DNA of 49,063 bases, taken from IMG/VR virus record IMGVR_UViG_2718217860_000001; one strand, 5' to 3'. Source of the stretch: a virus (lineage: Duplodnaviria > Heunggongvirae > Uroviricota > Caudoviricetes). The notes below the pieces were generated by a model. It was not told the origin of the DNA, searched no databases, and was given only the letters and a program-made list of their open reading frames with translations. The position numbers were made by a program, and so were the translations under genes. Positions 1,396 to 49,024 of the stretch are shown one piece after another (positions within the stretch are counted from its first letter, which is position 1; the number at the start of each line of letters is the position of its first letter).

Positions 1396-1428
1396 TGGTG
1401 GAGCTGGCGGGAGTTGAACCCGAGTCCG
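1396..1428. repeat. 33-bp direct repeat of the ssrA (tmRNA) 3' end; att-site remnant
   Basis: 1396..1428 (tggtggagctggcgggagttgaacccgAgtccg) matches 48662..48694 of the intact ssrA with one mismatch at 1423; flanking sequence diverges on both sides. Confidence 0.85.
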
Positions 1429-1500
1429 TATTTTTATAATTAGCTGAAATAAAACGATTAATACTAACCATTTTATTCTGCGGATCTTTTGCGGCTCCTT

Positions 1501-2400
1501 TTATGTCTGGATGTGGTCGTCAACACATCCTCTTTTAAATACAGGCGCTTTTACCTTAGTTGGATCATCTGTTTTAAAGATTTTCAATCGTTCACTGAAG
1601 AACATTACCTCAGATCCTTTGTACCGATCTTGAGCACTGTAGTTTATTCCATATACTAATGATGATGTCTTATACATAGCTTGGATCTCAGGAGTGTTAT
1701 CGTAAGAAACAATCCAAGGCGTTTTAATATTATTCTGTACGACTTTTGCAACCCTAACATGATCATCATGATCATAATGGTTGATATATAAACCTTTACC
1801 TTTTATGTAATAAGGTGGATCCAAATATGTTAATGAGTTTTGTGGCAATTGAATAACTATTTTTTTTATGAAATCAATTGCATCCATGTTATATAAATCT
1901 ATTCTGTGACGATTTTCTGATATTTTATGGATTCGAGAAATCAAATCACTCTTATTATAGCGAGCGTCAAGCTTCCATTTCCCTTCTTGATTTTTACCGC
2001 CAATTACACCACCTTTTAATATTCCAGAACGATTTGTTCTATTGAGAAAAAAGGTTGAGAAACCAATTGTTAAAAGATCATGGTCTTTAGGATTATTAAT
2101 TATATCTTTCTGCCTAAACCATTCATCCATTGTAACTTCTGTTCTTTCAATTAAAGAACATAATTGATCTGCATGATTTAATACACTGTGCCAAAAAGCA
2201 TAAACAGAAATATTAATATCATTAAGGATGATTTTTTCAGCTGCATTTAGATGTAACAGTTTCAATGCTAAACCAGCACCCCCAGCATATGGTTCGGCAT
2301 AATGTATAGGCGAAAGATTATTTTCTTCAATAATCCGAAGCATGAAATTTGCAAGCTTGCCTTTACCGCCAGGATAGCGAAGTGGGGTGTTAAAACGCAT
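1501..2400 (-). CDS. Dam-family (D12 class) N6-adenine DNA methyltransferase
   Basis: 299 aa. N-terminal AdoMet-binding region RYPGGKGKL...EPYAGGAGL resembles E. coli Dam (AGGK...EPFVGAGS); catalytic DPPY motif present (LDPPYYIKG). Low-GC gene with AGAGG RBS. Confidence 0.8.
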   Translation of the reverse strand: MRFNTPLRYPGGKGKLANFMLRIIEENNLSPIHYAEPYAGGAGLALKLLHLNAAEKIILNDINISVYAFWHSVLNHADQLCSLIERTEVTMDEWFRQKDIINNPKDHDLLTIGFSTFFLNRTNRSGILKGGVIGGKNQEGKWKLDARYNKSDLISRIHKISENRHRIDLYNMDAIDFIKKIVIQLPQNSLTYLDPPYYIKGKGLYINHYDHDDHVRVAKVVQNNIKTPWIVSYDNTPEIQAMYKTSSLVYGINYSAQDRYKGSEVMFFSERLKIFKTDDPTKVKAPVFKRGCVDDHIQT

Positions 2401-2431
2401 ATGATACCTCTAAATGTCAGATCTAAAGTAT

Positions 2432-2465
2432 ATCAAAAAAAGGGCTTTATGGCCATCACATAAAA
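2432..2465 (-). terminator. imperfect hairpin with U-tract between the ATPase and methyltransferase genes
   Basis: Minus-strand stem-loop (aagggttttatg...ccataaagccc) followed by a T-run, in the 79-bp gap 2401..2479. Confidence 0.3.
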
Positions 2466-2479
2466 CCCTTTTTAATCAA

Positions 2480-4059
2480 TTAGTTATCTGACAGATATGA
2501 TGAGATGGTAGCAGAATCGACACCATGTCCACTTATCATAATAACTTTAAGACTCTTTATTAGTTCATTCTTGAAGCTATCCGATTGCACAGGATTTTTC
2601 TCGACCCAATATCGATATGGGTTATCTTTAACTCGTCCTTTGACTTGGTCCTGAAATTGAGTCGTATGTGCAAAATCTTTAAACAGTTTTCTCACTCTCC
2701 CGCCATGATTTTTGTTAACTTTTTTATAATTATCTATAAGGATTTTTAAATCAATCGGAGCGTTACCAATCTTTAGCGTTGTAATTATGTCTTTAGCTGT
2801 TTTCATAAAAACAGATTTTGTAAATTTATTTTTATTTTCCCAATATGCATCATCAGGTGGTAAATTATATAAAAACTCAAAAATCATTTGGTCTGGAGGT
2901 AAGGTGCTTGGAAGCAAACATAAGTTTTTTTCTTTTTTGGCTTTTTTTGCATTAGCACTGTTGTCGTGAACAACATCACCGTCTAAGACGATCAAGCTTT
3001 TAGCTGTAAATTCTGGTATTTTTCTTGCCATTAAGTCAAGCATGGCAGAGCAGCTAATATTTATATTCCCTAATGGATTTAATATTTTATTTATTTTTCG
3101 ATCTGTTATCAATTGTTTGAAAAAGTCGAAACCTTCTTTGTCTTCAAAATATACATTTGCTTTTGGAAGACAAATGTCATCATTAATTTTTACAGTTTCA
3201 ACATGTAAATCAGCGTGGATATCTGTCCATGAAAGATTATTCTTTGTTTTAATATCTCCATATGTGTCTGTAAGATATATTGTTTTAAAGCTATCACTAT
3301 CTTGTTTTGAACGATTATAGATATCCTCTATTATTAATGGAGAGTGCGAGGTCATGATTATTTGCAGATCGTATTGTTTTGCTGCTTTAGTTAGAATATT
3401 AATTAGCTCTAACTGTGCAGCAGGGAAAAGACCTGCATCGGCTTCATCAATTAACAATATTCCGCCATGATAATCAGAATAAGTTTCCTTCAATCTTTTA
3501 AATGAAAAAATTGCTTGGATTAATTGTCCAACATTATCTTCACCAACAGATACTGATTGGTGATCATAATTGTCACCATGGACAACCATTGAATCGATAG
3601 TACCTTTTGTTGCTGTTACTGAGCTTCCATTGTTTTTTAGTAAGAGTTGGTTACTCATCATTCTGATTTCATCAGAATTTTCATTGATGTACTGAACATC
3701 CCGTGTTGAGTAATCAGTCCTTAATGTAATAGGAAGAAGTCGTGCTAAGCTTAAAAAAATAACAGGATGAGTAACGTTTCTACTTTGGTTTTTTTCCGGT
3801 ATTGAATCATTTCCCCTGACTACAGGCCTTGATTTATCTCTGTCACTGTAGCTGTATAAACCTAATGTTAGTTTTTCAAGATGTTTGTTCGATGCACCAT
3901 CATAGACACTAATTTTGACGTCCATTGAACCAGGAACATCAAATTGTTCTGAAAGCCTAAAATGTTCGCTGAAAGCTGACTTGAAGCTGCCATTTGTTAA
4001 TGTTTTATATTGTGTTAAATCAGTCTCAGGGTTTTTGGTAAAGTCCTTTGTAAAGCTAA
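2480..4059 (-). pseudogene. C-terminal part of an IS5-interrupted ABC ATPase with Toprim-like C-terminal domain (OLD-like)
   Basis: Reading frame is open upstream of the called Met (3925) all the way to the IS5 boundary at 4059, with no start codon. Contains Walker B ILLIDEADAGLF and H-loop MTSHSP typical of AAA_15/AAA_21 ABC ATPases. C-terminal region has a candidate Toprim signature: KEGFD and, ~50 aa later, LIVLDGDVV. Confidence 0.75.
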
Positions 4060-47599: not shown

Positions 47600-47643
47600 G
47601 GCACGAGAGGATTTGAACCTCCGCCCCCCGACACCCCATGACG
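47600..47643 (-). other. partial tRNA-Pro gene (3' ~44 nt only); probable att-site remnant
   Basis: Minus strand reads CGTCATGGGGTGTCGGGGGGCGGAGGTTCAAATCCTCTCGTGCC, matching the anticodon-loop-to-acceptor 3' portion of E. coli tRNA-Pro(GGG) as I recall it, with one mismatch; 5' half and CCA end are absent. Confidence 0.6.
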
Positions 47644-47650
47644 ATTGGCG

Positions 47651-48484
47651 TTAGTAGAATAAGCCGAATAGTTTGGTGTAGAAACCTATCCCAGTTCCGG
47701 CAATTCCAATCAAACTATAAAGTGGATGGGTCTTAACTAAATCAATTAATACGACGGGCTTAATGCCATAAAGATCCCAAAAAGTTGCATCTGTCTTCAA
47801 CGTCTTATCATGGGTCCGATCGATGATATTGGCGAAAATGTCAACTTTTCGGAGGGTTGAACGATGGAGCTCCAAATAATTACCGTTTTTGAATGCATCG
47901 GCTTCTTCGGCTCCTTGCAAGGCATCTAAATCTGCAATACCGTTCATTTCAGTCAGGCTCATTAACCGACCTTTCCTACCTTTTGCTGACGTATGGGGAG
48001 CATAGGAACGACCGTAAAGAGCAACTAAGACGCGAGCAAGATCTATCTTCCTCTCATCCTGCAGAATGTATGGCTCACCGCCTAAAACACGAAACCTATG
48101 CTCAATTGCTTGGAAGCCATATGCTTCGTCTCTCATATTCCAGTGTATATACGTGAAGTTCGCATGGTTTCGTAAAAACTGGAAGTAATCGGCGAGCATA
48201 TGATGCTCCAACTCATCAAGATGATCATTTATATCATCCAGCTTATGCTGTAATTCGGCTGATTTATGAATGGACCAGGAATGCGTTTGGGCTGAGGCCA
48301 GATTTCTGACAGCTATGGACGTCACTCGACGCGATTGTCCAGAATCGTTTTCATAGAAGGATTCACAGGAGTAATGGATAAGATAAGATTGCTCTGCGTT
48401 GGCAAAGGCCTTTTCTAGGGCTTTTCTGTTTTCCTTTCTGTTCGCAATGCGAACTAATTCGGATGAAGACATTGGCCACTCCAA
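47651..48484 (-). CDS. hypothetical protein, 277 aa, hydrophobic C-terminal tail (function unknown)
   Basis: Uninterrupted ORF between the tRNA-Pro fragment and ssrA; C-terminus LYSLIGIAGTGIGFYTKLFGLFY looks like a transmembrane or amphipathic segment; no catalytic motif recognised. Confidence 0.5.
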   Translation of the reverse strand: MEWPMSSSELVRIANRKENRKALEKAFANAEQSYLIHYSCESFYENDSGQSRRVTSIAVRNLASAQTHSWSIHKSAELQHKLDDINDHLDELEHHMLADYFQFLRNHANFTYIHWNMRDEAYGFQAIEHRFRVLGGEPYILQDERKIDLARVLVALYGRSYAPHTSAKGRKGRLMSLTEMNGIADLDALQGAEEADAFKNGNYLELHRSTLRKVDIFANIIDRTHDKTLKTDATFWDLYGIKPVVLIDLVKTHPLYSLIGIAGTGIGFYTKLFGLFY

Positions 48485-48507
48485 TGGTTAAAACACTACC
48501 CTAAATA

Positions 48508-48537
48508 CAAAAAAGCCCGCATAAGCGGGCTTTTTTG
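48508..48537. terminator. bidirectional rho-independent terminator downstream of ssrA
   Basis: gcccgc-ataa-gcgggc flanked by an A-run upstream and a T-run downstream; ~125 bp beyond the ssrA 3' end on the minus strand. Confidence 0.6.
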
Positions 48538-48661
48538 TCACTCTGGAGCCGCGGCTCCTTTGCGTATCCTTTTTTGTCTCCTCACCGTCTGGTCGGTGTC
48601 CTGCTGAGACTGCTAACTTGCTGTTTTTGTTGGTGTTGTCCTTACACCGTCCAATCATGAT

Positions 48662-49024
48662 TGGTGGAGCTGGCGGGAGTTGAACCCGCGTCCGAAATTC
48701 CTACATCCTCGGTACTACATGCTTAGTCAGTCTTTACATTCGCTTGCCAACTGCGGACGGACACGCCACTAACAAACTAGCCTGATTAAGTTTTAACGCT
48801 TCAACCCCAGGCAGGGCTTCCACGCGATCTCTTTTGGGTTTGACCTCTCTTGATCCCCGTCCTAAGAGCGGAGGCTAGGGAGAGAGGGCTCTAAGCAGGT
48901 TATTAAGCTGCTAAAGCGTAGTTTTCGTCGTTTGCGACTATTTTTTGCGGCTTTTTACGAGGCCAACCGCCCCTCGGCATGCACCTTGGGTTTCGCAAAT
49001 CCCGTCGAATCCAGAATCAGCCCC
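48662..49024 (-). ncRNA. ssrA: tmRNA (SsrA), complete 363 nt
   Basis: Reverse complement runs from GGGGCTGATTCTGGATTCGACGGGATTTGCGAAACCC... to ...GGTTCAACTCCCGCCAGCTCCACCA; includes the tag-coding region and tRNA-like 3' end. Confidence 0.95.

Follow-up and report, generated by a model that had tools for sequence, protein, structure and literature searches.

A lambdoid prophage at ssrA, probably inserted between the tmRNA gene and an older P4/IntA-type island

Introduction

Several integrative elements are said to share a single transfer-messenger RNA (tmRNA) gene, the theme of Williams's 2003 "Traffic at the tmRNA gene". Here, we describe one locus of this kind, a stretch of 49,063 nucleotides of viral DNA (IMG/VR record IMGVR_UViG_2718217860_000001; "the window" below means this whole stretch), in which a lambdoid prophage lies directly beside the tmRNA gene ssrA and is followed on its other side by a P4-type integrase of the IntA kind.

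Closely related phages are known to use this gene as their integration site. The phage PhiNP carries a 25-bp attachment site (attP), TGGTGGAGCTGGCGGGAGTTGAACC, and has been shown experimentally to lysogenize Escherichia coli K-12 at the 3' end of ssrA, duplicating the end of the gene while reconstituting the gene itself (PMC6456863). For phage LLS, attP was deduced as a 29-bp sequence identical to the ssrA 3' end, and the authors pointed out that the IntA integrase of the K-12 element CP4-57 targets the same gene while being 17% identical (PMC12315714). The principle behind the Islander software is that such an insertion leaves a regenerated target gene together with a displaced fragment of it, and tandem arrays of islands are also described (PMC4383910).

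An earlier note on this DNA, made from its letters, had proposed a prophage bracketed by copies of the ssrA 3' end and stacked on a second element represented by the P4-type integrase. Comparison with other genomes leads us to the view that an ssrA-specific lambdoid phage was very probably inserted by its own integrase between the gene and an older P4/IntA-type island.

Results

ARAGORN finds a single tmRNA gene in the window, at 48662..49024 on the minus strand with the tag ANDENYALAA, and the Rfam tmRNA model RF00023 matches the same interval at full length (294 bits), so that both programs agree with the earlier note in placing a complete gene at the right end. The 27-mer TGGTGGAGCTGGCGGGAGTTGAACCCG, the ssrA 3' end as it reads on the plus strand, has two exact copies, 1396..1422 and 48662..48688. 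Both are on the plus strand and are thus direct repeats, and none of 100 dinucleotide-preserving shuffles contained even one match. By blastn-short, the pair extends to 33 bp with one mismatch, A at 1423 and C at 48689. The repeat had been described as a 33-bp copy of the gene's 3' end; its position, its gene-like orientation and its identity to the 3' end all hold, and the 33 bp resolve into 27 exact positions, one mismatch and five further matches. No other significant copy of the ssrA end was found in the window by blastn-short.

The mismatched base helps to place the exchange. The A at 1423 is shared by the lysogens M10, S6aCHROMc and ETEC4088, and the lone mismatch of an empty-site query (99.9% of 698 nt; described below) would fit a C at the equivalent of 1423 in an uninterrupted ssrA. 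Taken together, these observations argue that the sequence from 1423 onward is phage DNA and that strands were exchanged inside the 27-bp block; part of 48662..48688, within the intact ssrA, is phage-supplied. At the displaced fragment, 1396..1428, two junctions coincide, that of the lambdoid prophage on its integrase side and that of the P4-type island on its ssrA-proximal side. The Islander signature is seen here in an intact tmRNA gene and a same-orientation 3' fragment on one replicon, a tyrosine integrase (5471..6637) between gene and fragment, and an uninterrupted site in related genomes.

To look for the uninterrupted site, ~330 bp of left flank, repeat included and ending at 1428, were fused to 48695..49063, and 5,426 complete E. 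coli genomes were searched with the product. Many of them contain an unbroken match to the joined flanks at 100% coverage and 99.9% identity, and 962 cover at least 80% of the query, the junction being annotated there as ssrA followed by an integrase. Removing the interval proposed as prophage (1396-48694) in silico thus recreates the ssrA-integrase junction of many E. coli, and the comparison with an empty ssrA locus in related strains, which the earlier note had suggested as a check, bears its boundaries out. From the other direction, matches to the left end of the prophage start at, or within ~85 bp of, 1396 in several genomes, and exactly at 1396 in ETEC4088, where the gene ypjA abuts the same prophage end and no P4-type integrase is present. 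Because the empty junction exists without the phage and the phage exists without the P4-type integrase, the two occur independently, as expected if the integrase belongs to a separate element. Because the site is found empty and the match breaks at 1396, the ~47 kb lambdoid prophage between the repeats is a discrete insertion bounded by them to the base. The tandem junction of prophage and P4-type integrase is found in ~20 genomes. That two elements are stacked at ssrA is further corroborated by the GenBank record of prophage CP-1639, which groups the same integrase and three neighbors under the name "remnant integrative element", next to a lambdoid prophage.

One could instead read the P4-type integrase and the lambdoid genes as one composite element with two integrases, of which the P4-type enzyme acts at ssrA; it is the integrase nearest an attachment core, and the record of the "phage" phi467 takes in both the P4-type integrase and island genes. 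We consider this scarcely credible, given that the junction of ssrA with the P4-type integrase occurs without the phage in hundreds of genomes, that the phage occurs without that integrase in ETEC4088, and that the repeat sits between the P4-type integrase and the phage rather than outside both. Moreover, PhiNP integrates at ssrA as a free phage with a lambdoid integrase (Int) 94% identical to that of the window, and LLS, whose integration site is deduced only, likewise lacks a P4-type integrase and has the same attP layout.

The lambdoid integrase, at 5471..6637 on the minus strand, does lie at the end far from the intact ssrA, as had been noted. It is 86% identical to the LLS integrase and bears no relation to that of a relative integrated at proL (22% over 98 aa). 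The excisionase gene beside it has counterparts annotated at the equivalent position in PhiNP (xis, excisionase) and LLS (putative excisionase). As in those two phages, an integrase with the Arm-DNA-bind_2 (DUF3596) domain is combined with a core of at least 25 nt of the ssrA 3' end downstream of int, and this core agrees with the published sequence. The stretch identical to ssrA is 25 bp long in PhiNP, 27 bp in the window and 29 bp in LLS, so that the shared crossover must fall within the 3'-terminal 25 nt; such a core belongs to the T-stem-region site class in Islander's terms (PMC4383910). The chemistry and site of recombination are presumed by analogy with the literature on the 94%-identical integrase.

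Gene order agrees among the three phages. In free LLS, it is xis, int, one cargo gene (gene31) and the ssrA fragment, and in PhiNP it is xis, int, an AAA ATPase, ~1 kb and att, so that the earlier deduction of an attP downstream of int, separated from it by cargo, holds for the whole group. With this layout, int comes to stand at the end of the prophage opposite the intact ssrA in every member. An attP downstream of int is the canonical lambda layout; what is unusual is not its position but the 2.8 kb of cargo between int and core, expanded to 4.0 kb here by IS5. No additional ssrA-like core was found close to the lambdoid int in the window; one there would have set the methylase and ATPase segment apart as an element of its own. 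On the integrase side, the predicted attP arm runs from the core to the methylase stop codon; the LLS match reaches ~30 bp past the core (~1460), and PhiNP remains ~82% identical well beyond 1500.

On the side of the intact gene, the prophage carries a copy of the ssrA 3' flank in addition to the gene end. This copy is 88-92% identical to the attP region of LLS, to CFT073, to the K-12 DNA just beyond psaA and to the ETEC4088 sequence left of the displaced fragment. These matches show that the phage carries the 3' flank of the gene as well as its end. In ETEC4088, where no island intervenes, the prophage is accordingly bounded by imperfect repeats of ~215 bp rather than 33 bp. A 24-mer from the flank was found in 15 species representatives across enterobacterial genera, ~93 nt after the tmRNA gene in 8 of the 15, and the flank is 77-94% (mostly 83-94%) identical across genera, lying either beside ssrA or on the far side of islands. 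This identity is high for intergenic DNA and suggests that the flank travels with phages. The "native" enterobacterial ssrA flank may itself be phage-derived.

From these elements, a course of events can be proposed. The attP of the incoming phage would have consisted of the last 27 nt of ssrA and ~185 bp of flank-like sequence with a terminator-like hairpin, and the phage integrase would have recombined it with the bacterial attachment site (attB) at ssrA, crossing over in the 3'-terminal 25-27 nt of the gene, in the T-loop and 3' acceptor region. The gene would thereby have been rebuilt from its own body and a phage-supplied end, and the old 3' end would have been displaced by 47 kb to 1396..1428. 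This displaced end would already have been joined to the older P4/IntA-type island, leaving a tandem with the newer phage beside the gene. The order in the phage genome would be xis, int, ATPase, methylase, core, flank copy, ORF277 (the open reading frame, ORF, of Table 1), a fossil proL core, DinI and tail fibers, and IS5 would have landed in the ATPase gene later.

The P4-type integrase is 48% identical to K-12 IntA of CP4-57, 100% identical to the "intA" of the phi467 record and 92% identical to the intA of the CP-1639 remnant element. The earlier note had placed it directly left of the repeat in the arrangement known from ssrA and intA, which its domains and spacing confirm: it starts 165 bp from the left repeat, compared with 202 bp between ssrA and the start of K-12 intA. 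As is typical of the P4/IntA type, this is a three-domain integrase beside the 3' end of a tRNA-type gene, in the same orientation. The window ends at its stop codon, and the island beyond was read from M10 (99.4% identical) and S6aCHROMc (98.9%). Past the integrase, both genomes carry non-core cargo consisting of a 138-aa ORF, a 582-aa "receiver domain" ORF, a 572-aa ATP-binding ORF and an IS3 element, after which come a ygaQ remnant and then core genes from glaH to nrdE, with gabP among them. The CP-1639 record (AJ304858, Stx1 prophage "and chromosomal integration site") annotates these island genes under the "remnant integrative element" label, and a review gives ssrA as the CP-1639 site; the tandem arrangement at ssrA was thus already described in 2005. 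The three island ORFs (138, 582 and 572 aa) have no match in Pfam or PADLOC. With its histidine-kinase-like 572-aa product and receiver-domain 582-aa product, the trio could form an uncharacterized two-component-like defense module.

A third copy of the ssrA end, which would close the island on its far side, had been expected further left, and this expectation failed. Neither the ssrA end nor its flank recurs within 21 kb left of the integrase in M10 or S6aCHROMc. In both genomes, the 27-mer with as many as 3 mismatches allowed, blastn-short (word size 7) and a blastn search with the flank returned chance 10-15-mers only, and no 14-bp match of the psaA class, psaA being the distal fragment of CP4-57 in K-12, 14 bp from the extreme 3' end of ssrA. 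The lack of any further repeat or island genes had been named as an outcome that would speak against stacking; the repeat is indeed missing, but island genes are present. Island genes without a closing repeat argue for a decayed island whose remnant is truncated at IS3. In S6aCHROMc, the P4-type integrase itself is broken.

The same structure could have arisen in the reverse order, with the lambdoid phage integrating first and the P4-type island entering the displaced 3' fragment later. CP4-57 leaves just a 14-bp duplicate of the ssrA 3' end in K-12, and a 33-bp fragment with its native flank, as seen in ETEC4088, could suffice as a target. We nevertheless find this order improbable. The phage is the element next to the gene body, with the island beyond it; without the phage, the junction of ssrA and P4-type integrase is common (the 962 genomes noted above) and 99.9% identical to the window flanks, whereas the tandem is rare; and the island is decayed, with its IS3, its missing distal repeat and the broken integrase of S6aCHROMc, whereas the phage looks intact. 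For these reasons, we infer that the island arrived before the phage.

The right end of the prophage carries a trace of a different integration site. Beside the DinI-like gene lies the fossil attachment module of a proL-integrating relative, made up of an arm and the 3' part of tRNA-Pro(GGG). The tRNA part, 47 nt long and oriented like ssrA, contains a 4-nt deletion as well as one substitution, and in the window its homology ends 4 nt to the 5' side of the anticodon loop. The module is 96% identical to the DinI-arm-tRNA-Pro sequence of a proL lysogen, its ~175-bp arm matching the stretch that lies there between the DinI-like gene and the intact tRNA-Pro. The displaced tRNA-Pro fragment of that lysogen is 55 nt long; the "tRNA-Pro" that RefSeq annotates at the lysogen's far end is this 3' fragment only, and ARAGORN calls no gene there. 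We also considered whether 47400..47599 might be host DNA from beyond proL acquired by aberrant excision, and ruled this out, the stretch being a phage arm beside the intact tRNA-Pro in the proL lysogen. The CFT073 prophage at ssrA has the same fossil, with a break within 2 nt of that in the window, and a different gene before the ssrA flank. Both breaks fall a few bases at most from the anticodon-loop crossover point. No free phage with the proL fossil was found, the phage collection matching the DinI part only.

The 1-kb cassette that separates the proL fossil from the ssrA flank varies in its gene among strains. In CFT073-like genomes, it holds another gene, annotated in some records as an "AbiTii domain-containing protein". 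ORF277, the occupant in the window, has no match in Pfam or PADLOC, and a homologue of it (53%) lies beside ssrA in a Raoultella genome. An ssrA int/att module appears, from these comparisons, to have been grafted onto a proL-type phage, with the core and arm of that phage left behind. A tentative proposal, which we consider possible rather than likely, is that the graft was a site-specific event, or the integration of one prophage into another followed by deletion, that the fossil still offers proL phages a secondary attB, and that the fossil and the ssrA flank copy, both derived from att sites, delimit a hotspot of cargo exchange; an attB inside a prophage is of the kind described by Nakamura et al. 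(PMC8112680).

The fossil also invites the question of whether it, at 47597..47643, is the true ssrA-side end of the phage, the 1 kb beyond (ORF277 and the flank copy) being a stationary remnant of an earlier ssrA element. Homology to the proL-integrating relatives stops exactly at the proL core, and the segment beyond varies among strains. Such an end is very unlikely, however: empty sites contain neither ORF277 nor the flank copy, the free phage LLS carries the flank copy beside its core, ORF277 belongs to a phage protein family, and the window holds neither a proL-type integrase nor a second proL core. We therefore keep the end of the prophage at ssrA.

In the cargo between int and attP, the Dam-like methylase has a counterpart in component B of PD-lambda-5, a compact prophage system of the restriction-modification plus abortive-infection (RM+Abi)-like kind (PMC9519451). 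For the partner ATPase, the 25 best of 115 PADLOC matches do not include component A (PD-Lambda-5_A) and are headed by PtuA/AriA/GajA at ~1e-20, so that of the two components of the system only B is present among the matches listed. The pair may be a variant of PD-Lambda-5 or an undescribed defense pair at the int-attP junction. In the window, IS5 has inactivated the pair. This insertion has the hallmarks of its family (~1.2 kb, a DDE transposase, terminal inverted repeats and a 4-bp CTAA target duplication at 4056..4059 and 5255..5258), and it is missing from the otherwise colinear prophages of M10 and S6aCHROMc. Excising 4060..5258 in silico restores a 577-aa ATPase ORF identical to that of M10 at 575 of 578 positions.

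The remaining features are typical of a lambdoid phage (Table 1). The prophage is colinear with that of S6aCHROMc at 94-99% identity, and its modules comprise xis, a CI/Cro region, Q, lysis genes, terminase, portal and a lambda-type tail with J, so that the genome looks complete as judged from its genes. A prfC-integrated relative shares the right arm up to ~47420 only. A 419-aa ORF in a 30%-GC patch after the tail fiber assembly gene has no match in Pfam or PADLOC and is likely a moron. RefSeq flags the defect of the DinI-like gene in S6aCHROMc and CFT073 as well. Rfam models matching at gathering score are isrK (11931..12007), C4 antisense RNA (12032..12119) and IS009 (45162..45360).

Table 1. 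Features of the window, from left to right, with the evidence for each.
Feature	Position	Strand	Evidence or remark
P4/IntA-type tyrosine integrase, 409 aa, intact	1..1230	-	Pfam Arm-DNA-bind_3, Phage_int_M and Phage_integrase
Displaced ssrA 3' fragment	1396..1428	-	1396..1422 identical to ssrA; A at 1423 is the phage-specific base
Predicted integrase-side attP arm, 72 bp	1429..1500	.	Sequence comparison
D12-class N6-adenine DNA methyltransferase (Dam-like)	1501..2400	-	Pfam MethyltransfD12 1.8e-19; PADLOC PD-Lambda-5_B 5.8e-124
AAA_15/AAA_21 ATPase gene (PtuA/AriA/GajA-like), split by IS5	2480..5412	-	Pfam and PADLOC on intact homologue
IS5, 1195 bp	4060..5254	-	Transposase 4206..5186; Pfam DDE_Tnp_1 and DUF772
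Lambdoid tyrosine integrase, 388 aa, ssrA-specific	5471..6637	-	Pfam Arm-DNA-bind_2 and Phage_integrase
Excisionase, 72 aa, overlapping the int start	6598..6816	-	phrog_2917 excisionase 1.6e-45
Lambdoid phage body	6864..47420	.	PHROGs; RefSeq annotation of the S6aCHROMc prophage
CI-like repressor	10014..10688	-	PHROGs
Q	17103..17897		PHROGs
Endolysin	20516..21013		PHROGs
TerL (large terminase)	22787..24889		PHROGs
Portal	25026..26606		PHROGs
Protease/capsid fusion	26359..28578		PHROGs
Tape measure	31726..34821		PHROGs
J	37213..40710		PHROGs
Side tail fiber	41445..44819		PHROGs
Tail fiber assembly	44819..45403		PHROGs
419-aa ORF (ORF419)	45532..46791	-	"Ea47 family" in some RefSeq records
DinI-like gene, apparently frameshifted	47110..47316	-	68-aa ORF with an out-of-frame ATG upstream
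Fossil attachment module of a proL-integrating relative	47421..47643	-	Arm 47421..47596; tRNA-Pro(GGG) 3' part 47597..47643
ORF277, phage-associated protein	47651..48484	-	phrog_8766 4.6e-62, a family without assigned function
Copy of the ssrA 3' flank ("D"), ~185 bp, ssrA-side attP arm	48480..48661	-	Hairpin plus T-run 48507..48538
Intact ssrA (tmRNA)	48662..49024	-	ARAGORN and Rfam; right repeat 48662..48694

Discussion

What was observed directly comprises the repeats, the boundaries as read from empty and alternative sites, the family to which the integrase belongs and the order of the genes; we infer that the prophage is still able to excise. Several points weigh against the history proposed here. 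The order of arrival follows from parsimony; the P4-type island has no closing repeat, so that two integrases share one displaced fragment and a strict Islander reading counts just one member of the tandem as complete; the integrase-side arm is just 72 bp long before the methylase gene begins; and the proL fossil marks the element as a mosaic, part of whose ssrA-proximal 1 kb could have a separate history. With these points in view, we still hold that the lambdoid phage very probably inserted itself between ssrA and an older island.

At this clean, fully bounded locus, one can see how the tmRNA gene comes to be occupied by one integrative element after another, each replacing the 3' end of the gene. 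For annotation, the gain is that the prophage ends are set to the base, the phage is told apart from the island remnant, and a defense-like cargo inactivated by IS5 is flagged. Current understanding is unaltered. The prophage family, the int/att system, the remnant element and the stacking at ssrA have all been documented before, in publications and in RefSeq genomes, and only the proL fossil and the mobile ssrA flank are mildly new. Both are small, concrete traces of phages changing their attachment modules.

Among known systems, PhiNP, a Citrobacter rodentium phage (OR565852; Magaziner et al. 2019, PMC6456863), resembles the prophage in its integrase, in a core taken from the ssrA 3' end, in the xis-int-ATPase-~1 kb-att order and in being lambdoid. 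Its integration likewise regenerates ssrA and duplicates the end of the gene, which was demonstrated for PhiNP and is read from sequence in the window. Within this group, integration, excision and plaque formation are on record for PhiNP only. It differs in its 25 bp rather than 27 bp of ssrA identity, its host of origin, the lack of IS5, a sequence beside the core on the integrase side that is ~82% identical only, and a methylase that is not annotated. Escherichia phage LLS (PQ299149; PMC12315714), whose record annotates a tmRNA pseudogene as well as attP, shares the integrase (86%), the 185-bp flank copy and the presence of cargo between int and attP, but that cargo is one unrelated gene, the tail fibers are different and include an invertase, and there is no proL fossil.

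The tandem itself finds its closest counterpart in CP-1639 (AJ304858; Creuzburg et al. 2005), also lambdoid and inserted at ssrA, where it lies alongside the same remnant element, in which intA is followed by a 138-aa ORF, a 582-aa ORF and a histidine-kinase-like ORF and then by the ygaQ/glaH side. Unlike the prophage described here, CP-1639 is cryptic, encodes Stx1 and is riddled with IS629, and its intA is truncated, whereas that of the window is intact. CP4-57 of K-12 likewise has a P4-type integrase, IntA, just downstream of ssrA in the same orientation, and the island supplies the 3' end of the gene and a terminator of its own; the integrases are only 48% identical, its cargo is wholly different, and it has kept its 14-bp distal repeat (psaA). 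Finally, the tandem islands described with Islander and TIGER also combine an intact target gene with a same-orientation 3' fragment and a core in the T-stem region; at this ssrA locus, only one of the two members has kept a fragment of its own.

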